DNA of 64,000 nucleotides from NCBI GenBank assembly GCA_937864815.1, contig CALMJY010000173.1:687-64686 (forward strand). The letters run 5' to 3'. Of the stretch, positions 2,665 through 39,928 are shown in pieces. Every line of letters begins with the position of its first letter. Position 1 is the first letter of the stretch. Source of the DNA: an uncultured Bacteroidota bacterium. GTDB lineage: Bacteria > Bacteroidota > Bacteroidia > Bacteroidales > VadinHA17. The notes below the pieces were generated by a model. That model was not told the DNA's origin, did no database searches, and saw nothing but the letters and a program-made list of their open reading frames with translations. Position numbers and translations under genes: made by a program.

Positions 2665-3591
2665 TTATTTAAATCTTAAATTACTTTGGAAGTAATCGTT
2701 TTTGTCTTTTATAATGCAATCCTTTGTGATCTGACCGGTTATCAAAGGCGATAAAGGATCATGTTTCAAAATGTTATTTTTTACAGCGGTTAGACTGTAA
2801 TTTGCATAACAATAGAGGCAATTATGACTGCAGGTGTTATATTCTCCAATATCTGTGCTTTCTATACAGCCACAAGCATTTCTTTGATATTTGTCTTTAC
2901 TTGCTTTTATTTTATAGCCAATAATTCTTTCAATCAAGTCTTGATCGACACAATGGCCATGTTCAAAACCGAAATCCATTAGGTCAATATCTTCAGAGCA
3001 GGTTTCAATTTTTAAGTCATAAAGTCCTGTAGCATTTTTAAACCCATGACTAAGTTCGATTATGTCATGATTATTGGGTACCCTTGCTTCAAGCGTCTTT
3101 ATATTCTTCTCACATTTTTTATATAAATCCAAAAAGCTGATTATGCATTTTTCAGTATAGGGGGATAATATTTCTGCTAAATGGTTGAAGTATTTTATAT
3201 GATATTTAATGTCCATTTTTCTTGTAAGGAAGATCGGATCATATCGCCAAATAACTTTACTTTTCCCGATCTTCTGAGATAATTCAATAAATGTTTTAAT
3301 AATCTGGACTTTTTTAGCAACTCTCAATTCAATTGATGAATCATAAGGATTTAAGGTAAATTGGAAATAATATTTATAGTCTTTTAATTCTTCGAGTCTG
3401 GATATTATATTTTTAGGATTTTTAGTCCAAAACACAATACAGTCTATTTTGTTTGGATTTAGATCTATACGTGAAAGTAGTTTACTGTTAAATGGATTTC
3501 TAACTAATACAAATTGCTCTTTTATTCTATTTAGAAACCAATCAGAATAAAAGGCAGGTATATCGGTTCTCCGGCTGGCGCTGATTATCAT
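2665..3591 (-). CDS. DUF1848-family protein with a C-terminal radical-SAM-like Cys cluster
   Basis: It starts MIISASRRTDIPAFYSDWF, the DUF1848 hallmark as I recall it. The C-terminus reads CGCIESTDIGEYNTCSHNCLYCYA and contains CX3CX2C. The likely start is 3591, overlapping the upstream stop as TAATG; the ORF track extends to 3636. Confidence 0.8.
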   Translation of the reverse strand: MIISASRRTDIPAFYSDWFLNRIKEQFVLVRNPFNSKLLSRIDLNPNKIDCIVFWTKNPKNIISRLEELKDYKYYFQFTLNPYDSSIELRVAKKVQIIKTFIELSQKIGKSKVIWRYDPIFLTRKMDIKYHIKYFNHLAEILSPYTEKCIISFLDLYKKCEKNIKTLEARVPNNHDIIELSHGFKNATGLYDLKIETCSEDIDLMDFGFEHGHCVDQDLIERIIGYKIKASKDKYQRNACGCIESTDIGEYNTCSHNCLYCYANYSLTAVKNNILKHDPLSPLITGQITKDCIIKDKNDYFQSNLRFK

Positions 3592-4454
3592 TATAATTTT
3601 TCTATAATAAGTTGTGCACTTGAACAGAATTGCCAAGGATTGAATTTACTTATTTTAGGATTGACTGTAAAAAGAATATTGTTTTTTGGATGTTGATTGT
3701 GATACCAAAAGTAATTACTTAAGCTATGAGCATAGTGATAGCTATATACGTTGACACTTGGTATTTCTTTAGCCATATTTCCTATATCACCATAGTGTGA
3801 TCTGGGATCAACATCTGATAGACCTCTATTGAAGTCATTTATTATTATATATGAATCTTTTGGTAATCTGTTAAGAATATTCTTTATCAGTAACTTTTTA
3901 AGATTGATTATATTTGAATTTGATCTTAAGAGTTCAGAAATCAAGTAACTGATTATCACAATATTTGGAGAATTGTTTTTGAAGAAGGAATCTGTATTGT
4001 CAAGGAATTCATATACATCTTTATATTTTACCTCAAAAGGATTTGATGTATTACTTTTTATCCAGTCATGAATAGGTCTCCAATCTTTATTTATTTCTAT
4101 TCCACAATATTTTATAGATTTTTTAGGATTCAGCTCTTTCTGTAGAGTATCAATTCCTATAAAATCAGGACATGATCCACATCCTAAGGATAAAATGTTT
4201 AATTCACTTAATCTTTTAAGATTGCTGTATTTGACTAATAAATACCAAATTTCGGACGAATATTTATATGTGTATTTGCAACTGTAGAAATACAAAATAT
4301 TTTGACAGTTATACCCGTTTTCTCTCTTCCCATAATGAATGTTCTCGAGACATTTTTCGCAATCACCAGTTTGTGGACATTGATTCTTACAATCTGAGCA
4401 GATTTTTGTTCTTGAATAATTACTGTTACAGTAATTTAGAAATTCATTTATCAT
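3591..4454 (-). CDS. Class I SAM-dependent methyltransferase-like protein with an N-terminal Cys-rich (Zn-ribbon-like) region
   Basis: It carries CSDCKNQCPQTGDCEKC and then a motif-I-like LNILSLGCGSCPDFIG. It is translationally coupled to the DUF1848 gene. Confidence 0.7.
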   Translation of the reverse strand: MINEFLNYCNSNYSRTKICSDCKNQCPQTGDCEKCLENIHYGKRENGYNCQNILYFYSCKYTYKYSSEIWYLLVKYSNLKRLSELNILSLGCGSCPDFIGIDTLQKELNPKKSIKYCGIEINKDWRPIHDWIKSNTSNPFEVKYKDVYEFLDNTDSFFKNNSPNIVIISYLISELLRSNSNIINLKKLLIKNILNRLPKDSYIIINDFNRGLSDVDPRSHYGDIGNMAKEIPSVNVYSYHYAHSLSNYFWYHNQHPKNNILFTVNPKISKFNPWQFCSSAQLIIEKL

Positions 4455-4479: not shown

Positions 4480-4756
4480 GCTAACGGCCAGCGGGTATGG
4501 GCAGTAAGTGTTACCTGACACAGCCAGCAGGCCACCAGTCCTGGTACTTTAACCGAAAAGTTGTCCCTGTGGCAAGGAAGGTATGGCGCAATTTTTGCAA
4601 ATCCCGGCGATAGATTTAATTGTCTCTTTAGCACGGATCTGTCCAGAGCCGAAATCACAAAGTTTGTAAACGAACGAGATTTATCTATCACTATAAAGTT
4701 GTCTAGGTGTAGTGCAAAAATTGTGACAAACTTATTGCCTATACCCGCTTGTTAGC
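4480..4756. repeat. Long imperfect hairpin element D (attC-like or REP-like)
   Basis: The ends are GCTAAC (4480-4485) and GTTAGC (4751-4756). A 19-bp stem pairs 4490-4508 with 4731-4749 and has two G:T pairs on the + strand. The element lies between the stop of 4784..5263 and the start of 3591..4454. Confidence 0.75.
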
Positions 4757-4783
4757 ACAAGTATATTGTTATCCATGAGATAC

Positions 4784-5263
4784 TTAAAAATTTACGATCC
4801 ATACAGAATAATCATCAAGCAGTTTATAATTTTTGGATCTTTTATTCGTAGACTTCAATTCACTTAGAGGGATTTGGAATCGTTTTTTATCAGTAACTCG
4901 TATTACGTCAACAATTAGTCCATCGTATTCGTCATATCGCTCACCAGTTTTTTCCAGAATAAAAGTATCAAGGTATGATGGATTTGATTTTTTTAGTTTT
5001 TCATACTCTTTTAGACTGCCAGGTCCCAGAAGGTAAAATTCTTCCCAACTGAAGTCCTCAATCCCAGTGAGCTCAATTGGGTAAGATAAATTCTGATCCA
5101 GATATTCTTTATAGATGGTAATAGTATCCAATCTTTTAGATAAGTCTTCAGTTTTATTCTGAAATACTGCTTCTATGCGTTTTTCTTGGTTTTTAAAATT
5201 TTTGTCCATTTTAATTGGGTCATTGTTAAAGTGCTGTAATTGGCTAAAATAGGAAAAAATCAT
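4784..5263 (-). CDS. Hypothetical protein (159 aa, acidic)
   Basis: It is a clean ORF co-oriented with its neighbours. I recognise no motif. Confidence 0.6.
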   Translation of the reverse strand: MIFSYFSQLQHFNNDPIKMDKNFKNQEKRIEAVFQNKTEDLSKRLDTITIYKEYLDQNLSYPIELTGIEDFSWEEFYLLGPGSLKEYEKLKKSNPSYLDTFILEKTGERYDEYDGLIVDVIRVTDKKRFQIPLSELKSTNKRSKNYKLLDDYSVWIVNF

Positions 5264-5272
5264 TTAAGAGTT

Positions 5273-5490
5273 GTTAGCACAAGTATTTGTTTGTCGTGCG
5301 ATGGCAAAGTCCCGGTAAACGGCAGTATAGTTATTTTGTTAACAGAATAAGATATATGGCGGCGGGTAGGCCAATTATCTTTCGTACGAGGGGCATGTCC
5401 AGATAAGGGGCAGAAATTATTTTATTAAAGTAGAACATATTAAAGACGGCGCGAAGGCTAATATTTTGTGTATGAAATATTTGTGCTAAC
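5273..5490. repeat. 16-bp inverted repeat pair enclosing ~186 nt of non-coding DNA
   Basis: GTTAGCACAAGTATTT (5273-5288) pairs with AAATATTTGTGCTAAC (5475-5490), with one G:T on the + strand. The right arm is shared with hairpin 5483..5614. Confidence 0.7.
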
Positions 5491-7734: not shown

Positions 7735-7822
7735 GTGCAACACCCATTATAAATTTGTCTTGTGTGCAGGAGCAAAAGCAAAAAGTGTGACAAGCTTATT
7801 AACCCTACCGTCCGTGTTAGTG
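7735..7822. repeat. Dispersed intergenic repeat, copy B
   Basis: The core is GTGCAACACCCATTATAAATTTGTCTTGTGTGCAGGAGCAAAAGCAAAAAGTGTGACAAGCTTATT..CCGTCCGTGTTAGTG. It ends ~18 nt from the ABC ATPase start codon. Confidence 0.8.
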
Positions 7823-16133: not shown

Positions 16134-16205
16134 GGCGCAATGGCGCAAAGGCGCATGGGCGCAATGGTGTAAATATGCGACTGAGCCGCTGAGCCGTTGT
16201 GCCGT
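16134..16205. repeat. 8-nt microsatellite pair ('solo' bracket): (GGCGCAAN)x4, 16-nt degenerate spacer, (TGAGCCGY/TGTGCCGT)x3
   Basis: It has period-8 tandem units. They are the reverse complement of the two arrays that bracket the four-helix-bundle gene at 23152..23756. It lies between the cheA stop codon (2 nt away) and the cheB start codon. Confidence 0.9.
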
Positions 16206-22625: not shown

Positions 22626-22997
22626 TCAGCTTTTATTAATTTCCGACAGTTTATTAATAATATCTTTTATCCTTTCAACCTCCTGGTTCTTATCAAGGAA
22701 GTAATGAGCTCCCAGGTCATAGCACCTTCTTCTATATTGCCAGAATGGGTAATTTGTCAGCATACAAATTGTGGTCTTCAATTTCAATTCGCTGAGTTTC
22801 TCCAATACCTCTATCCCATTCATTTCCGGCATCCGGATATCAATAATTGCAAGATCAGGCTCGTATTCTTTGATACTTCGCAGTGCATCCAAACCGTTTT
22901 CAGCTTCATACACACTTAAATTCTTATCAGTATCTTCTAACAGGCCTTTAATTCTTTCTCTCAACAGAGAGGAATCATCTGCAATTACTATTTTCAT
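22626..22997 (-). CDS. cheY: CheY-like single-domain response regulator
   Basis: It is 123 aa with IVIADDS..IIDIRMPEMNG. It is the first gene of the che operon. Confidence 0.85.
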   Translation of the reverse strand: MKIVIADDSSLLRERIKGLLEDTDKNLSVYEAENGLDALRSIKEYEPDLAIIDIRMPEMNGIEVLEKLSELKLKTTICMLTNYPFWQYRRRCYDLGAHYFLDKNQEVERIKDIINKLSEINKS

Positions 22998-23151
22998 ATC
23001 GAATCAGTTATTATTTATCCCGGGACCAGGTTTTTCATGCTTCCCGGGAAATACAATGTTAGTAAATGCAGACAGTGTAAGATATAGTAATTTAGCCTGT
23101 TAGCATGTAGGGGAAGGATGATTTTGTTGTAGGGGAAAGATGACATGGATG

Positions 23152-23207
23152 GCTCAACGGCACAACGGCTCAACGGCATAACGGCTCAACGGCATAACGG
23201 CTCAGCG
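23152..23207. repeat. 8-nt microsatellite (GCTCAACG/GCAYAACG)x7
   Basis: It is a perfect period-8 tandem array. It is enclosed by the 8-bp inverted pair TGTTAGCA (23098-23105) / TGCTAACA (23262-23269). Confidence 0.92.
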
Positions 23208-23298
23208 GCAAGATTACAGTAAATAACGAATTTAAAATATAAGGTTATTTTTATACTTTAGTGCTAACATATTCATTACTAATTTTAATCGCTGCAAA

Positions 23299-23652
23299 AT
23301 GGGAAATTTCCAAAAACTTCGTGTTTGGCAAATAGCCAAAGATCTTGCTGTTAAAATCTACAGGTTAACGCAAAATCAAAAATTTTCAAGGGATCGTGGA
23401 TTTAAAGATCAGATTCAAAGATCCGCAGTCAGTATTCCTTCAAATATTTCTGAGGGTGATGAATTAGAAACTGACAAGCAATCAGTTCGTCATTTCTATA
23501 TTGCTAAAGGATCTGCAGCGGAATTATTGACTCAGATAATTATTGGATATGAAGTCGGTTATATAATTAAAAATGATGCTGATCAACTGATTGAGGAATG
23601 TAAGATCATTTCTGTTATGTTGACAAAACTAATTCGCGCCAGAAGTACCTGA
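23299..23652 (+). CDS. Four-helix-bundle protein ('23S rRNA intervening sequence protein' / Avd-like family)
   Basis: It is 117 aa with GNFQKLRVWQIAKDLAVKIYRLT..FSRDRGFKDQIQRSAVSIPSNISEG, typical of this family. It is the only convincing + strand gene in the first 30 kb. Confidence 0.85.
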   Translation: MGNFQKLRVWQIAKDLAVKIYRLTQNQKFSRDRGFKDQIQRSAVSIPSNISEGDELETDKQSVRHFYIAKGSAAELLTQIIIGYEVGYIIKNDADQLIEECKIISVMLTKLIRARST

Positions 23653-23660
23653 TTCTTTTG

Positions 23661-23756
23661 CCTGCGCCCTTGCGCCTTTGCGCCGCTGCGCCTTTGCGCC
23701 TTTGCGCCATTACGCCCTTGCGCCCTTGCGCCTTTGCGCCCTTGCGCCCTTGCGCC
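23661..23756. repeat. 8-nt microsatellite (YTTGCGCC)x12
   Basis: It is a period-8 tandem array. It starts 8 nt after the four-helix-bundle stop codon and ends 1 nt before the convergent RR stop codon. Confidence 0.92.
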
Positions 23757-23757
23757 G

Positions 23758-24387
23758 TCATTCTATCATATTATTCCTTATAGCATATATCGTCAGCTCG
23801 GCATTATTCTTCATGCCCATTTTCTCAAGAATTCTGATTCGGTATGTGCTTACTGTTTTATCGGAAATAAAGATTTGCTTCGCGATTTCAGTAACGGATT
23901 TCCCTTTTGCCAGCATAAGCATCACCTGGAATTCTCTCTCAGAGAGTTTATCATGAGGTTTACCGGCATCTTCTCCGTATCCGTTAAAAGCGATTTTCTC
24001 AGCTAAGGAAGCCGTAACATATCTTCCACCCGATGCGATTTTTCTTATTGCAAGAGCTAATTCTTCAGATGCTGTGTCTTTCGAAAGGTATCCTGATGCG
24101 CCAAGGTGAAACGCCCTGATGGCATATTGCTCCTGGGGATAGACGCTTAACATAAGGACATGAATTTTCAGATCATGATCCCTGATGTTTCTTAGAACAT
24201 CCAGTCCGTTAATACCGGGCATAGCAACATCAAGGACCACGAGGTCATAATTTCCAACTTTGATTTTTGTCCAGGCTTCATCCCCGGTTACAGCTTCATC
24301 TATCCGGCATATTTCGTCAAGAGACTTTAATATCTGCTTAAGTCCCTCACGGACTATTGAATGATCGTCGGCAATAAGAACATTCAT
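23758..24387 (-). CDS. NarL/FixJ-family response regulator (REC + LuxR HTH)
   Basis: It has VLIADDH..LDVAMPGINGL and LSEREFQVMLMLAKGKSVTEIAKQIFISDKTVSTYRIRILEKMG. Confidence 0.92.
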   Translation of the reverse strand: MNVLIADDHSIVREGLKQILKSLDEICRIDEAVTGDEAWTKIKVGNYDLVVLDVAMPGINGLDVLRNIRDHDLKIHVLMLSVYPQEQYAIRAFHLGASGYLSKDTASEELALAIRKIASGGRYVTASLAEKIAFNGYGEDAGKPHDKLSEREFQVMLMLAKGKSVTEIAKQIFISDKTVSTYRIRILEKMGMKNNAELTIYAIRNNMIE

Positions 24388-27967: not shown

Positions 27968-28547
27968 GGTGACCTTCTTTTTATTGCAGTAAAATAAACT
28001 TGAATTTTATTGCGCCTGTTAGCTCAAGATTATGTACCAAATGTGATAATCGATAGAAATGAATGCTTTAATTCAATTTGTTAGTTTGCGTACTTTTAAA
28101 AAATGTTCATGGTCATTTTCATCTTATCAGCTAAAGAGTTTAACACCCGGGATATTCCCGGATAAAGAGGATTCAACAACAAATTCTATGAGCAACGCAT
28201 CTATGCTTTAACAAAATTAAAAAAAATAGCGAATTTTCCTAATTATGAATCACTTGTGTCCTACTAGACCTATGCGAAGACATTTGGCTATAGCTTTTGC
28301 CTGAGGGCTGGATTTAGTATTGGGCATAGGTCAATGTGCCAAATCAGCGGTCGTGGTTTAATGTTTGAGGAGAGCAGAAAACATGTCAGCGTATTGTTAT
28401 TTTGTTAACAGCACTGGTGCAGTCTAGTCCCGGCGAACGGAGTGAGTCGGGAGTCGCGCCGAAGGCCCTGACCGAAGCGAAGCGAGCGTCATGGGGTACA
28501 AGTTTAAGCGGAGCCAGGAATCAGTCAAGGTATAGGATTTAAATTGC

Positions 28548-28656
28548 GGGCAGAGGAGCGTGTCCGGGTGCAAGAACTATTACAAATTTGTCTTGGATGC
28601 AGGAGCTAAAGCAAAAAGTGTGACAAGCAACTTACCCATATTGTCCGTGTTAGCGG
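28548..28656. repeat. Dispersed intergenic repeat, copy C
   Basis: The core is GGGCAGAGGAGCGTGTCCGGGTGCAAG..ACAAATTTGTCTTGGATGCAGGAGCTAAAGCAAAAAGTGTGACAAGC..TTGTCCGTGTTAGCGG. It lies ~15 nt from the stop of 28672..28917. Confidence 0.8.
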
Positions 28657-28671
28657 CCGATTTTTTATTAT

Positions 28672-28917
28672 TCACTTATCAAGCTTTTTCCATTCACCTG
28701 AATTATACCTTCTAATTATTTCTTTTGCTACATCGTTTGAAAATTGTTGAATTCCAGAAGATGATCTTTTCCCTTCCAGCCTGCATTTTGGACATGTAGC
28801 CATTTGAGCGATATTATTATGTTCCATCGGAGATTCACATACAGGACATAACGGCACAACATTTTTAATATTGAATTTTCCTGTTAACAAATCATAATCG
28901 TAGTCCCAAGTCCACAT
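28672..28917 (-). CDS. Hypothetical small Zn-ribbon protein (81 aa)
   Basis: It has two CxxC pairs (CPVC, CPKC). I recognise no family. Confidence 0.5.
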   Translation of the reverse strand: MWTWDYDYDLLTGKFNIKNVVPLCPVCESPMEHNNIAQMATCPKCRLEGKRSSSGIQQFSNDVAKEIIRRYNSGEWKKLDK

Positions 28918-29610: not shown

Positions 29611-29998
29611 TTTCTTTTGTATTGATTATAATCAATATATGCCAATGATTGTGCCATTCTTGTTATGTAATAGTATGTCAGATAAATACATGGCGATTCT
29701 GATTTTTTATTGATTTGAAATATCTTCGTAAACGAATATAGAATACCCGGAACCGGGCATTTTTAAATAAAAAAGCAGAGAATCGAGCCAGAAGATTCTC
29801 ATTCTAAATAGACTCCCGTATTATGATATTTATGTTCTTCAGAAAACATGGTTTTCGTTTCTTTCCTACTGGTAACTAAAAATTGACCTTTTAATCCTGC
29901 CTGACCAGGAAATCTGCTAATCAACTTTTGGCAAGTATGCTTTTCAGATGCATAAAGTGGTAATGGTCTGATAACAGCCATTTAAATATTTCCTATAA

Positions 29999-30290
29999 AC
30001 GCGTTGTGCGGTTGACAATTAAATAAAAGAGTCTGTAATTGGTCGATAACTATGTTAAAAACTCAAATAAATAATCTAATCTTCTCATATTCTTGCAATT
30101 ACCCCCCTTCCCGGCCTTCCCCCTGCGCCTTCGCGTAGCCGCTTCGGCGGAGCAAGGCAGGGGGGAAGGAGTACTGCATTTCCCCCTGGGGGAAAATGAA
30201 AGGGGGTTTATTTCGAAAAAATACAAAATATGTAACTAAAAGGTTATTGAGCACTAAATGAATATATTAAGATTCAACCGCACAACACGT
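29999..30290. mobile_element. MITE-like non-autonomous element, full copy (292 bp)
   Basis: It has 17-bp TIRs, ACGCGTTGTGCGGTTGA (29999-30015) and TCAACCGCACAACACGT (30274-30290), with 1 mismatch. A 9-bp direct repeat TTCCTATAA sits at 29990-29998 and 30291-30299. There is no ORF. It has an internal GC-rich hairpin at 30115-30169. Confidence 0.85.
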
Positions 30291-30799: not shown

Positions 30800-32226
30800 C
30801 ACTAGTGTCCGACTAAAATAATAAAAAGAGGGGTACTCCCCAAAGGTTTCCCCCAATGTTGTAATTTGGTTTTACCACAAACTAAACACAACATGGGTAA
30901 AATTACAGAAATAAAATTAGTCGGACAGCCGATCTTCAAACAGATAATGAATTTGGTTGATAAAGTTGACATACAGGGATTGATAAGGAAGCATGAGAGT
31001 GATTATTATTACAAGTCATTCAAAACCCGTACACACCTTTTCACAATGCTGTTCGGGATACTGAGCCGGTGCGATTCGATGACAGAAGTCTGCGAAGGGC
31101 TTCGTGCAATGGGCGGCAAGCTTAATCATCTGGGTATGGACCAGGCACCAGCTAAGAGTACAGCATGCGACGGACTGCGTAACAGAAGCCATAAGTTCTT
31201 TGAGGATCTATATTTTACCCTGGTAAAACATTATCATAGTTTTTTGTCGGACAGCCGGACATTTGGACTGACTTTTAAGGAGGTACTTATTATTGATTCC
31301 ACGACAATCCGGTTATTCAGTGACATATTAAAAGGAGTTGGCCGTAATCCAAAGGGTGACGGCAAGAAAAAAGGAGGAATGAAGGTCCATATGCTTATTG
31401 ATGCAGTTCAATCGGTTGGACGGTTTATCAAAATGACGGCAGCAAAGGTCAATGATCAGAAGTTTTTAAAGAGTCTTGAGTTGATATCCGACAGCATGAT
31501 CGTGTTTGATAAAGCCTATAACTATTACCACCAGTTTGCACTTTGGACACAGAAGCGTGTATATTTTGTCACCCGGATGAAAAAGAATGCTGTCTATACG
31601 ATTATAGAGGTTAAAAGAGAACATTATCGCAAGAGAGGCAAGGCAAAAGTATTAAGAGATGAGATCATCGAGCTGGAGTATCATCCAGAGAAAGAAGACG
31701 GAAAACAAGATCTTAAAACCAAGCTCACAATGAGATTAAGAAAGGTCAGCTATCAGGATGAGCAGAACCGCTACTACGATTTTCTTACAAACAATTTTGA
31801 TATATCAGCAGAAGATGTCGCATTCCTGTATAAGAAAAGATGGGGCATTGAGATACTGTTCAAGAAAATGAAGCAGAACTTTCAGCTGCATTACTTCTAT
31901 GGTGAGAATGAAAATGCAATCTATACCCAGGTCTGGTGTACTTTAATAGCCCAATTGCTATTGACTGTGACACAGAAGATCGCACAGGCGAAAAAAGCTT
32001 TCTCTGTAGTGGCATCGTTGGTTCGGATACACCTGATAAGCATGCTGGATGTAAATGAACTTTTGCGCAGCACAAAAAGAGCTTTTAAGAGTAAATCGAT
32101 ACCCCCTGGGTTACAATTATCCTTTAATTTGCAGGAGGTCAGTTTTTAAATACAAAATATGATACTTGATAATCAGATACATACGAGAATGAATCAAGTA
32201 TCTAAATTATTAATCGGATAACAGTG
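30800..32226 (+). mobile_element. IS4-family insertion sequence (1427 bp)
   Basis: A 9-bp TSD ATTTCAAAG sits at 30791-30799 and 32227-32235. The terminal inverted repeats are imperfect: CACTAGTGTCCGACTAA.. and ..TTAATCGGATAACAGTG. Confidence 0.88.
30893..32149 (+). CDS. IS4-family DDE transposase
   Basis: It starts MGKITEIKLVGQPIFKQIMNLVD..SFKTRTHLFTMLFGILSRCDSMTEVCEGL.. as in IS4-type transposases with an N-terminal DUF4372-like region. The ORF track starts at a TTG (30866); the ATG at 30893 is more plausible. Confidence 0.85.
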   Translation: MGKITEIKLVGQPIFKQIMNLVDKVDIQGLIRKHESDYYYKSFKTRTHLFTMLFGILSRCDSMTEVCEGLRAMGGKLNHLGMDQAPAKSTACDGLRNRSHKFFEDLYFTLVKHYHSFLSDSRTFGLTFKEVLIIDSTTIRLFSDILKGVGRNPKGDGKKKGGMKVHMLIDAVQSVGRFIKMTAAKVNDQKFLKSLELISDSMIVFDKAYNYYHQFALWTQKRVYFVTRMKKNAVYTIIEVKREHYRKRGKAKVLRDEIIELEYHPEKEDGKQDLKTKLTMRLRKVSYQDEQNRYYDFLTNNFDISAEDVAFLYKKRWGIEILFKKMKQNFQLHYFYGENENAIYTQVWCTLIAQLLLTVTQKIAQAKKAFSVVASLVRIHLISMLDVNELLRSTKRAFKSKSIPPGLQLSFNLQEVSF

Positions 32227-39728: not shown

Positions 39729-39748
39729 TGTACTAATATTGAATTATA

Positions 39749-39928
39749 ACGCGTTGTGCGGTTGACAATTAAATAAAAGAGTCTGTAATTGGTCGATAAC
39801 TATGTTAAAACTCAAATAAATAATCTAATCTTCTCATATTCTTGCAATTACCCCCTTCCCGGCCTTCCCCCTGCGCCTTCGTCCCGAGTACTCGGGACTT
39901 CGGCGGAGCAAGGCAGGGGGAAGGACGT
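39749..39928. mobile_element. MITE-like element, internally deleted copy (180 bp) inside the EPS operon
   Basis: The first ~130 nt are near-identical to 29999..30130. A 10-bp direct repeat TTGAATTATA sits at 39739-39748 and 39929-39938. Of the right TIR, only the terminal ACGT remains. Confidence 0.8.

Follow-up and report, generated by a model that had tools for sequence, protein, structure and literature searches.

What kind of genetic element is formed by a small four-helix-bundle (4HB) gene that lies between two arrays of short tandem repeats? In the window, the whole 64,000-nucleotide stretch analysed here, such an arrangement occurs at 23151–23756, between two response-regulator genes (the RR209–RR123 site). 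The gene belongs to PF05635, a very large family for which we know of no function outside diversity-generating retroelements (DGRs). Family members are also carried by intervening sequences (IVSs) of 23S rRNA genes, which are inserted in 23S helices 9, 25 or 45. To our knowledge, IVSs have been regarded as selfish and horizontally acquired for thirty years, with no known mechanism of mobility. The first-pass annotation of the window proposed that the gene is a discrete, possibly selfish or mobile cassette with repeat brackets. Our analysis supports this proposal. The locus probably belongs to a widespread type of selfish cassette situated between genes, which would correspond, outside ribosomal genes, to the ORF-bearing IVS of 23S rRNA. 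The features discussed below are the following.

16134–16205, no strand: solo pair without a gene, (GGCGCAAW)x4.2, a 14-nt spacer and (YTGAGCCG/TTGTGCCG)x3, found by TRF
23151–23210, + strand: G-rich arm, (GGCNCAAC)x7.5, TRF period 8 and 16, scores 71 and 106
23211–23298, + strand: leader, probable promoter and 5′UTR, ...TTTATACTTTAGTGCTAAC...AATCGCTGCAAA directly before the ATG
23299–23652, + strand: 4HB gene, 117 aa, PF05635/TIGR02436 match ('23S rRNA intervening sequence protein')
23663–23756, + strand: C-rich arm, (YTTGCGCC)x11.8, TRF score 132

In the G-rich arm, GGCTCAAC alternates with GGCAYAAC, giving a 16-nt super-unit, GGCTCAACGGCATAAC (TRF). The arms had been described as two different microsatellites, but YTTGCGCC is the reverse complement of GGCGCAAR; both arrays are built from one GGCNCAAS unit family, inverted relative to each other, and their units differ at positions 4 and 8. 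The window contains 5 arrays, compared to a mean of 1.04 in first-order Markov sequences simulated from it, where the highest score was 40. The position of the second array was confirmed: the C-rich arm begins 8–10 nt past the 4HB stop codon and stops 1 nt short of the stop codon (23758–23760) of the convergent LuxR-type response regulator gene. Small ORFs are readable through the arrays, for instance from an ATG directly before each G-rich arm; they were treated as chance. The leader probably holds a promoter, judging by a TAnnTTTG-like Bacteroidota −7 box, and the G-rich arm sits upstream of it. The last ∼50 nt of the leader (TTTA...TTTAGTGCTAAC...CGCTGCAAA) are conserved at L002, L003, L004, L005 and L016 (L-numbers are labels of relatives' loci), which occupy two further genomic contexts. 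As a check for phase variation, we noted that the repeat tracts of the window are outside the ORF, with the G-rich tract upstream of the probable promoter. Over 6.3 kb, 4 substitutions and not a single indel separate an ENA contig from the window, and the array copy number is the same in both; copy number differs between the window and both L002 and L003, and between L089 and L090.

From 185 to 27967, the minus strand carries every ORF of at least 140 aa, whereas the 4HB gene is on the plus strand. Its orientation opposite to the neighbours, pointed out in the first-pass annotation, thus holds for the window, but it is not a rule: at the 67 GTDB loci scored for gene direction, 30 genes point the same way as both neighbours, and 10 point against both. 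Genes called within ∼3 kb of the cassette encode CheW, CheR, response regulators and a PAS-domain protein (precomputed Pfam matches), the last of which we read as a histidine kinase. At gathering level, Rfam gave nothing in the window and no rRNA, with chance-level matches only at 22900–23900. The sole transposase of the window is an IS4-type gene (30866–32149), 7 kb from the cassette.

An 8-bp inverted pair, TGTTAGCA/TGCTAACA, had also been reported around the first array. The pair exists; however, it is not a part of the cassette, being absent from the orthologous L002. One arm belongs to the host DNA that precedes the RR123 gene, beside a CCCCTACA operator that relatives with an empty site conserve as well; the other arm (TGCTAACA, 23211–23298) lies within the conserved promoter/5′UTR of the cassette. 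At the host side, the TGCTAACA octamer is common only to the window and L098, and chance alone should give an estimated ∼0.2 such 8-bp pairs per 170 nt. The GTTAGC/GCTAAC 'box' to which the pair had been linked is not enriched, with 16 occurrences in the window versus ∼27 expected from base composition (an estimate). The TGTTAGCA/GTTAGC box is a chance occurrence.

The 4HB protein matches Pfam PF05635 with an E-value of 2e-32 (111.9 bits, cut-off 33.8), NCBIfam TIGR02436 with 3e-33 (114.5 bits, cut-off 24) and NF008912 with 131.1 bits (cut-off 124). PF05635 is its sole Pfam match; the HUH/Y1 (IS200/IS605-like) transposase is absent, and we found no recognised catalytic or DNA-binding domain. 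The protein contains the family motif QIQRSAVSIPSNISEG and the helix-face motif GxxRxxxSxxxNxxE (G34...QIQR41SAVS45IPSN49ISE52G53), which has been reported for the family (PMC3936711) and whose residues are invariant across alignment A1. Its PDB relatives 2GSC (XCC0516, E 3e-13) and 2RLD have five chains per entry; by analogy with these solved structures, the window protein would be a homopentamer. Compared to relatives, the dN/dS of the gene is 0.05–0.11 (∼0.08), and the protein is under strong purifying selection. The family profile matches at least 20,660 clusters at 50% identity (E ≤ 1e-3). PADLOC and PHROGs gave no match for the gene, leaving a defence-system reading unsupported, and tblastn against 50,697 phage records gave no 4HB match.

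Like the window copy, every relative examined shows the array–gene–array layout, in five bacterial phyla and inside an rRNA gene. TRF detected arrays of 7–9-nt units on at least one side of the gene at 68 of the 71 evaluable GTDB loci, and on both sides at 48; at seven TRF-poor loci, including the three without any TRF array, degenerate arrays could be recognised by eye. Array density at the GTDB loci is 4.0 per kb beside the gene versus 0.40 per kb beyond 1 kb. A further sample, whose choice was independent of the gene, contains six copies, all with arrays (6/6); the corresponding densities are 2.27 and 0.094 per kb. The median array is ∼5 units long. The plasmid copies, nine cyanobacterial and one a 23S rRNA IVS, have arrays in 10/10 and inverted arrays in 9/10; in the cyanobacterial ones the units are heptamers, and the gene is co-directional inside operons. 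An Azospirillum 23S rRNA gene carries the layout inside its IVS, and the XCC0516-type gene of Xanthomonas lies between accB and accC, co-directional with this operon and flanked by GGGAATC arrays.

The repeat unit varies from one copy of the gene to another. Paralogues within one genome bear different units, and the similarity of arrays in 6-mer content rises with protein identity (Spearman 0.27, reached by 0 of 2000 permutations); the GGCGCAA core follows the protein subfamily, as an octamer in Bacteroidales and as a heptamer in Desulfobacterales. Since the unit differs among paralogues and tracks protein identity, it follows the gene lineage and not the host. The arrays belong to the 4HB gene. 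Unbracketed gene copies, or arrays that are generic microsatellites, had been named beforehand as grounds against a cassette; we found instead that the copies from GTDB genomes, plasmids, Xanthomonas and the independent sample are bracketed, and that the arrays are concentrated near the gene. In the full-text literature outside subscription journals, no paper ties the 4HB family to flanking tandem arrays generally; the nearest are the report of the Coxiella IVS heptamers (PMC4990558) and papers on stand-alone repeats only.

The inverted orientation of the two arms is also general. For 34 of the 43 equal-period pairs the arms match as reverse complements with at most two mismatches; compared directly, 9 of 43 do. 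The mean reverse-complement distance of the arms is 1.67, compared to 2.85 ± 0.27 for shuffled pairings (0 of 2000 reach the observed value), and across 52 loci the arms pair much better with each other than with shuffled partners (P = 7e-9). In MFE folds of the window on both strands, array pairs with array across ∼450 nt (z −3.2 and −4.9). Both arrays repeat one unit in opposite orientations and are predicted to be able to form a long interrupted stem. Because the window arms mismatch at 2 of 8 positions, leaving 3-bp blocks on the plus strand, this stem would be weaker than in cyanobacterial or rRNA copies. Sense and antisense pairing energies showed no strand bias from G–U asymmetry (21 versus 27 loci, P = 0.40), and the strand of folding followed no pattern in 11 operon- or rRNA-embedded copies; the absence of bias gives no specific support for an RNA over a DNA structure, or for a simple shared origin of the arms. 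The probable promoter of this Bacteroidales subfamily lies downstream of the 5′ arm, so the cassette's own mRNA would contain one arm only, and the stem would be possible only in read-through transcripts or in DNA.

Inverted pairs at the relatives' loci fall into two size classes by inner gap. The gene class consists of 48 pairs with gaps of 360–610 nt, and 47 of these enclose a 4HB ORF; the solo class consists of 28 pairs with gaps of 0–90 nt. The solo pair of the window (16134–16205) is of the same unit family as the cassette arrays and fills the gap between cheA (stop 16208) and cheB (start 16100). Its hairpin folds have predicted energies of −37.4 and −30.8 kcal/mol, with z −2.8 on both strands. 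An ATGA overlap with the cheA stop is present at this pair and was treated as chance. Further solo pairs occupy intergenic gaps of relatives' lexA/Y-family polymerase loci. Solo pairs of matching unit coexist with cassettes in the same genomes.

That solo pairs sit precisely in operon gaps (cheA–cheB, lexA/Y-family polymerase, Nostoc and Xanthomonas) would also suit a host function. The 4HB protein might be a global nucleic-acid-binding regulator of the host, with arrays as its operators or RNA sites; the flanking arrays would then provide autoregulation, and the solo pairs would be a regulon setting termination, stability or translation in operons. The strong purifying selection, the pentameric relatives together with the median of ∼5 units per array, and the G-rich arms of cyanobacteria and proteobacteria, which place GGAG/GGGA directly before the ATG, are all in keeping with such a regulator. 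In Geobacter metallireducens, moreover, paired tandem 7–9-nt sites have been annotated for unidentified global regulators (PMC2700814). We nevertheless consider this explanation unlikely, in view of how the copies turn over.

Looking for presence/absence polymorphism, including replacement, we found it at the site occupied in the window and also in plasmid operons of Nostoc. The RR209–RR123 site is empty in L101, L139 and L140, holds a solo pair in L133, and is gene-less in L102 and L104, where arrays (L102) or remnant units (L104) of the window's unit family surround an unrelated ∼200-nt hairpin repeat in place of the gene. Other 4HB lineages, each with its own arrays, occupy the site in L103, L099, L106, L107 and L098 (61, 54, 53, 31 and 27% identity, respectively). 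L098 is the closest relative, with a flanking-gene dS of 0.13 to the window, yet its 27%-identical 4HB gene has 11-nt arrays; possible single-unit remnants of the window's unit lie outside them. In the Nostoc plasmid operons, filled and empty sites are exactly between stop and start codon, and their comparison revealed no evident target-site duplication or other insertion signature. Synonymous divergence of the 4HB gene (0.69 and 0.63) is 2–3 times below that of the adjacent host gene (1.95 and 1.30), a hint of exchange between lineages. Cassettes are gained, lost and replaced at one intergenic site, and we infer that the cassette is mobile. The replacement at RR209–RR123 could reflect transfer followed by homologous recombination in the host flanks instead of transposition.

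For a host regulator, empty orthologous sites, a swap for a 27%-identical lineage with another unit at a host dS of 0.13, and the coexistence of several lineages and units in one genome are all unexpected; nor would one expect it within rRNA helices, and the lowered dS of the gene, with its hint of lineage exchange, also argues against it. A selfish cassette remains our preferred reading.

The same loci bear on a second alternative, in which the arrays are generic REP/STRR-type hairpin microsatellites of the host that arise by slippage, and the 4HB gene separately lands or stays in their loops. The abundance of solo pairs (28 in the sampled loci), the published count of 70–75 convergent pairs in Xanthomonas (PMC4692102), the unrelated hairpin repeat inside the window-family arrays of L102 and remnants of L104, the nested or multilayer arrays at L013, L024, L039, L046 and L063, and the possible remnants outside the 11-nt arrays of L098 could all be explained in this way. 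We judge it quite improbable, however, because the unit differs among paralogous cassettes of one genome and, at one site, between near-identical hosts, and because the GGCGCAA core stays with its protein subfamily in both Bacteroidales and Desulfobacterales. Moreover, the rRNA IVS brings its own arrays to a place where the host has none, and the filled and empty Nostoc sites differ by arrays and gene arriving together.

The cassette has a polarity: the G-rich arm is 5′ on both strands in 22 solo pairs versus 6, and in 32 gene pairs versus 8. One may therefore ask about a link with reverse transcription, since a G-rich repeat added to each host 3′ end would generate the observed polarity. The 4HB protein would then be an Avd-like accessory of a distant reverse transcriptase, with arrays formed as telomerase-like templated repeats on the 3′ ends of a break and the cassette joined between them. 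PF05635 has been reported to resemble the Avd protein of DGRs (PMC10053308), the units are telomere-sized, L067 bears (AAACCCT)n, and neither a transposase nor a target duplication was found. On the other hand, a search for a reverse transcriptase or a template/variable repeat (TR/VR) pair, the check proposed with the first-pass annotation, turned up neither: no reverse transcriptase lies beside the gene in the annotated contexts (within ∼3 kb in the window, cyanobacteria and Xanthomonas), and a direct-repeat scan of the whole window gave no TR/VR-like pair, the only repeats being the arrays, receiver-domain paralogy and unrelated dispersed repeats. The family is also missing from the phage records searched, and it is the polarity that has to carry the argument. 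We regard this scenario as very improbable.

How does the preferred reading, a selfish cassette, compare with known systems? The ORF-bearing 23S rRNA IVS (Leptospira, Coxiella 'S23p') is the closest, as it also has a PF05635 gene in the loop of a stem formed by complementary termini; tandem heptamers are present in the Coxiella IVS (PMC4990558), and the Azospirillum IVS has an identical array–gene–array layout. Different from an IVS, the window copy lies between response-regulator genes and not in an rRNA helix, is probably transcribed from a promoter of its own located after the 5′ arm, is accompanied by solo pairs that lack a gene, and has long imperfect octamer arrays as arms instead of a 28-bp near-perfect stem. 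In Coxiella burnetii, RNase III cuts the IVS stem in vitro, and the heptamers are strain-variable in copy number (PMC4990558). According to that paper and the Salmonella and Leptospira work cited therein, the terminal stem of an rRNA IVS is cut by RNase III, the insert leaves the host transcript, and the insertion is harmless. We know of such RNase III processing only in rRNA IVSs (Coxiella, PMC4990558).

The REPIN/RAYT system likewise combines a small conserved gene with an inverted flanking repeat that is also dispersed as gene-less hairpin doublets; its repeat is specific to the gene lineage, and several families per genome are possible. However, RAYT is an HUH/Y1 transposase whereas the window protein is a four-helix bundle, REPs are single ∼20-nt palindromes instead of tandem 7–11-nt microsatellite arrays, and RAYTs are single-copy, whereas 4HB genes are often multi-copy and are found inside operons and rRNA. 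Avd belongs to a homologous pentameric four-helix-bundle fold family, but the window has no adjacent reverse transcriptase (within ∼3 kb) and no template/variable repeat, and the window-subfamily profile reaches no Avd entry in the PDB at E ≤ 0.01. The lack of a transposase in the cassette, and of a target-site duplication between filled and empty Nostoc sites, sets it apart from IS elements and MITEs.

Among published dispersed repeats, the GGGAATC 'G-quadruplex' repeats of Xanthomonas and the Geobacter and cyanobacterial STRR-type repeats resemble our arrays in unit length, intergenic place and frequent convergent pairing (PMC4692102, PMC2700814); in the passages searched, these papers treat the repeats as stand-alone DNA or RNA motifs and do not name the 4HB family. 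The link made here is that the XCC0516-type gene is flanked by exactly the GGGAATC family. Cyanobacterial 4HB genes are likewise flanked by heptamer arrays; a derivation from 4HB cassettes is not claimed for all such published repeats.

How such a cassette may work can be outlined by analogy. It would consist of a PF05635 gene between two inverted arrays of one 7–9-nt (rarely 11-nt) unit, oriented so that the G-rich arm would be 5′ on either strand. A transcript reading through it would fold arm on arm and then be processed or insulated as in an rRNA IVS. The 4HB protein, a pentamer in solved relatives, would be the trans-acting factor that recognises the cognate repeat, and solo pairs would be cassette-less derivatives or landing pads. 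Neither a transposase in the cassette nor a target duplication was seen, and we saw no reverse transcriptase gene beside it.

More tentatively, it is possible that 4HB proteins at large are dedicated partners of inverted arrays and form a ubiquitous selfish class, REPIN/RAYT-like yet mechanistically different, lacking a known transposase fold. If this were true, one system would cover the cyanobacterial STRR-type heptamers, the Xanthomonas GGGAATC repeats, the paired sites of Geobacter and the ORF-bearing rRNA IVSs, and the pentamer, reading about five units, would cause arrays to spread, to be maintained or to be excised at the RNA level.

The evidence joins rRNA IVSs and the separately described Xanthomonas, Geobacter and cyanobacterial repeats into one architecture, namely inverted lineage-specific arrays round a conserved gene, together with solo pairs, with documented gain, loss and replacement. 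For annotation, it means that 4HB genes in cas, accBC, chemotaxis and rRNA operons are passengers and not members of the respective pathways.

The cassette resides at 23151–23756 of the window, in the gap between the genes of one LuxR-type response regulator (RR209) and one CheY-like receiver (RR123). Its parts, the two flanking genes and one solo pair (gene-less inverted array pair) are as follows.

22626–22997, minus strand: CheY-like receiver gene
23151–23210: left 8-nt array, 7.5 copies, 16-nt super-unit GGCTCAACGGCATAAC (TRF)
23299–23652, plus strand: four-helix-bundle (4HB) ORF, 117 aa, PF05635 and TIGR02436 matches
23663–23756: right 8-nt array, 11.8 copies of YTTGCGCC (TRF)
23758–24387, minus strand: RR209 gene
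16134–16167 and 16182–16205: solo pair, GGCNCAAS-family units, 14-nt spacer (TRF)

The 4HB protein matches PF05635 ('23S rRNA intervening sequence protein') and TIGR02436 ('four helix bundle protein') with E-values of 2e-32 and 3e-33, respectively. Its nearest solved relative is XCC0516 (PDB 2GSC, E 3e-13); like PDB 2RLD, this entry contains five chains. An identical 117-aa protein is present on ENA metagenome contigs, the nearest named genomes being Bacteroidales and Rikenellaceae MAGs; an uncultured Bacteroidales host is probable. A dN/dS of 0.05–0.11 indicates strong purifying selection on the gene. As the first-pass annotation stated, it runs opposite to its neighbours; all ORFs of at least 140 aa between 185 and 27967 are on the minus strand. 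Further neighbours are CheW, CheR and one large PAS-domain protein, read as a histidine kinase. Neither a catalytic or DNA-binding domain nor a transposase was recognised in the cassette, no reverse transcriptase was seen among the genes within ∼3 kb of the 4HB gene, a direct-repeat scan of the whole window gave no TR/VR-like pair, and comparison with defence-system (PADLOC) and phage (PHROGs) families gave no hit.

The window contains five arrays of this kind, with TRF scores up to 132; first-order Markov simulations gave a mean of 1.04 and a top score of 40. The two flanking arrays were initially described as different microsatellites. However, YTTGCGCC read on the other strand is GGCGCAAR, a unit of the GGCNCAAS family to which the left array also belongs; the right array is the same family, inverted. 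The arms are mismatched at 2 of 8 positions. For either strand, the predicted minimum-free-energy structure pairs them with each other across ∼450 nt (−176.9 kcal/mol, z −3.2; −188.5 kcal/mol, z −4.9). The solo pair fills the gap from the cheA stop to the cheB start.

The annotation also enclosed the left array in one 8-bp inverted pair built on a GTTAGC box. The pair exists (TGTTAGCA at 23098, TGCTAACA at 23262), but the comparisons point to chance. The TGTTAGCA arm belongs to the host DNA upstream of the gene for the receiver. The other arm lies in the leader of the cassette; the final ∼50 nt of this leader are also conserved in other copies. TGCTAACA is common to the window and L098 (a relative's locus) only, the orthologous locus L002 is without the pair, and GTTAGC was rejected as an enriched box, with 16 occurrences in the window against ∼27 expected from composition. 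In the host region near 23098, one CCCCTACA box pair is conserved in relatives with a filled, solo or empty site. The direct repeat TGTAGGGGAAGGATGA / TGTAGGGGAAAGATGA (23107–23143), upstream of the receiver gene, reads as CCCCTACA twice on the strand of that gene. The chemotaxis operon probably uses it as an operator or promoter element, to which the adjacent LuxR-type regulator may respond.

Searching GTDB genomes with a profile built on close relatives gave 80 loci, with hosts among Bacteroidales, Desulfobacterales, Saprospiraceae, Nitrospirae, a gammaproteobacterial symbiont and others. For the 71 loci that offer 250 bp or more on each side, 6–10-nt TRF arrays were counted within 250 bp; 68 have an array on at least one side of the 4HB gene and 48 on both. 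Seven TRF-poor loci, including the three without any TRF array, show degenerate arrays by inspection. Array density falls from 4.0 per kb within 250 bp of the gene to 0.40 per kb at distances above 1 kb. In a gene-independent sample (313 kb around RR209 homologues, six 4HB genes), the values are 2.27 per kb beside 4HB genes and 0.094 per kb elsewhere; L107, the only one of the six loci without a TRF array, has irregular inverted arms GTCTTGAG/CTCAAGAC. Other 4HB copies are thus bracketed too, and the arrays are not generic intergenic microsatellites, so that neither of the two refuting outcomes named in the annotation is borne out.

Most arrays in relatives have a period of 7 nt (78) or 8 nt (72), and six have one of 9 nt, with median copies of 4.6–4.9 per array. 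The unit varies between loci, but the units on the two sides of a gene are reverse complements of each other: among equal-period pairs, 34/43 agree within two mismatches as reverse complements versus 9/43 directly, and the mean reverse-complement distance is 1.67 versus 2.85 ± 0.27 when shuffled (0/2000 shuffles reach 1.67). The inner gaps of inverted pairs are bimodal, 0–90 nt (28 solos) or 360–610 nt (48 pairs). The latter enclose a 4HB ORF in 47 cases, a count biased because the loci were selected for the gene. In 22 of the 28 solos, the G-rich arm precedes the other; among gene pairs, 32 have this order, 8 have the opposite one and 7 are ties. No strand bias of arm pairing energy was seen.

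Two side observations concern Desulfobacterota. Downstream of the 4HB gene in L067 (Desulfobacterales MAG), the C-rich arm (AAACCCT)x8.7 has the sequence of the plant-type telomere repeat, and the G-rich arm consists of (ATAGGGT)x20. In L071, L073, L075, L077, L079, L051 and L064, the cassette lies directly upstream of one Y-family-polymerase-like gene. The upstream gene is LexA-like by eye in L051 and L064; in the L071–L079 loci one solo pair with the cassette's unit follows immediately after the polymerase gene, which thus has repeats on both sides.

The more alike two 4HB proteins are, the more alike their arrays are in 6-mer content (Spearman 0.27; 0/2000 permutations reach this value). 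The GGCGCAA core follows the 4HB subfamily of the window, as an octamer in Bacteroidales and a heptamer in Desulfobacterales. Distant second paralogues in the same loci (32–62% identity) have their own inverted arrays of different units, such as GGCGCAAC and ATCAGGG in L014. These comparisons indicate that the unit belongs to the 4HB gene, not to the host. Alternatively, the 4HB protein could be a host regulator and the arrays its operators; in Geobacter metallireducens, three classes of paired tandem 7–9-nt sites on opposite strands are annotated for unknown global regulators (PMC2700814). We give the regulator reading lower weight than that of an IVS-type cassette.

Evidence for gain, loss and replacement comes from the cassette's own site in the window, which is common to L002 and L003. 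The RR209–RR123 gap was scored in 80 metagenomic loci with RR209 homologues.

L101, L139, L140: empty
L133: solo pair
L102 (arrays of the window's unit family), L104 (remnant units): gene-less, ∼200-nt unrelated hairpin repeat between arms
L103 (61% identity), L099/L100 (54%), L106 (53%), L107 (31%), L098 (27%): other 4HB lineages, each with its own arrays

L098 is the closest relative (RR209 protein 94% identical, dS 0.13), yet its PF05635 gene is only 27% identical to that of the window and its arrays are of 11-nt ATTGAATGACC. Outside them, at 3131–3160 and 3690–3705, short single-unit-like stretches of the window's family (GGGCGC-TTTGCGCC, CTGAGCCGTT) may be what is left of an earlier GGCNCAA-type cassette that the present one displaced. 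Synonymous divergence of the 4HB gene from L002 and L003 is 0.69 and 0.63, 2–3x below the values for RR209 next to it (1.95 and 1.30); this hints at exchange between lineages, with the caveat that the 4HB gene is short. The hairpin repeat, with arms GGATTGCTTCG...CTCGCAATGAC / GTCATTGCGAGG...CGAAGCAATCC, is found in L102 (3130–3380), L104 (1361–1690) and L105 (3130–3450), each time in the RR209–RR123 gap, and flanked by remnant octamer arrays in L102 and L104. It resembles a dispersed hairpin element of another kind that inserts at this spot.

On Nostoc plasmids, homologous operons carry the cassette in different intergenic gaps, with different units. Compared to empty sites, filled sites have array, gene and array within the few bases between one stop codon and the next ATG, with no evident target duplication. 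The presence/absence polymorphism sought is therefore found at both places. Arm copy numbers are unequal between the two N. punctiforme plasmids. Arrays could instead be pre-existing landing pads for the gene, as gene-less pairs might suggest, or arise by templated repeat addition; both receive lower weight than turnover of array and gene as one unit.

A tblastn search of plasmids returned 21 records, mostly cyanobacterial, at 30–41% identity. Arrays abut the 4HB gene in 10/10 fetched loci and are inverted in 9/10 (for example, GGGAAAA/CCCTTTTC, AGGGAAC/CTGTTCC, AGGGTGT/CTACACC and TCAGGAG/CTGACTC). The cyanobacterial gene is co-directional within operons such as cas6-[4HB]-cas4 and cmr2-[4HB]-cmr3, in agreement with an earlier record of the PF05635 family within cas loci (PMC3936711). 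The XCC0516-type gene of Xanthomonas is found between accB and accC, with (GGGAATC)n on one side and the complementary array on the other. These heptamers are the G-quadruplex repeats of Rehm et al., with 70–75 convergent pairs per genome; the searched passages of that paper do not mention the 4HB gene (PMC4692102).

On the Azospirillum lipoferum plasmid AZO_p2, the 4HB gene is inside a gene called bacterial LSU rRNA by Rfam (2537 bits), flanked by GAGGACG/GTCTTCT arrays. It is a classical ORF-bearing intervening sequence (IVS) of 23S rRNA, with the same array-gene-array layout as in the window. The Coxiella IVS is reported to have an S23p ORF in the loop of its terminal stem, and tandem GACAGAT heptamers in strain-variable number (PMC4990558). 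Strict members of the IVS class lie inside rRNA; the element of the window does not, and the best description for it is an IVS-type 4HB cassette outside rRNA. In the freely accessible full-text literature, we found no paper uniting the 4HB family with flanking inverted arrays and solo pairs.

The window also contains other repeats, of which the system at 4490–5490 is unrelated to the octamer arrays, and one transposase gene.

4490–4509 / 4730–4749: 20-nt inverted pair spanning 220 nt
4749–4773 and 5271–5295: 25-nt direct repeat TTGTTAGCACAAGTAT..., flanking ORF 4784–5263 (159 aa, only weak Pfam match)
5475–5490: inverted copy of the 25-nt repeat
2512–2675, 7735–7820, 28510–28673: three-copy intergenic repeat, 86–164 nt, 73–85% identical, ending ...CCGTCCGTGTTAG; without a gathering-level Rfam match; possible small non-coding RNA or MITE-like element
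29985–30122, 39735–39871: ∼140-nt repeat, 91–92% identity, 9.75 kb apart, each copy ending with C-rich tract CCCCCCTTCCCGGCCTTCCCC
30866–32149, plus strand: IS4-type DDE transposase gene (PF01609 and DUF4372), among the few plus-strand genes

Taken together, these observations show that the cassette is a unit of gene and inverted arrays, with arms able to pair, and is subject to turnover. In published rRNA work, such stems are RNase III substrates (for the Coxiella terminal stem, in vitro; PMC4990558), and their cleavage takes the insert out of the transcript. In the window subfamily, the 5′ arm is upstream of the probable promoter. By analogy with rRNA IVS, read-through transcripts over the window cassette and the solo pairs would be processed or insulated, and the conserved, putatively pentameric 4HB protein would recognise its cognate repeat.
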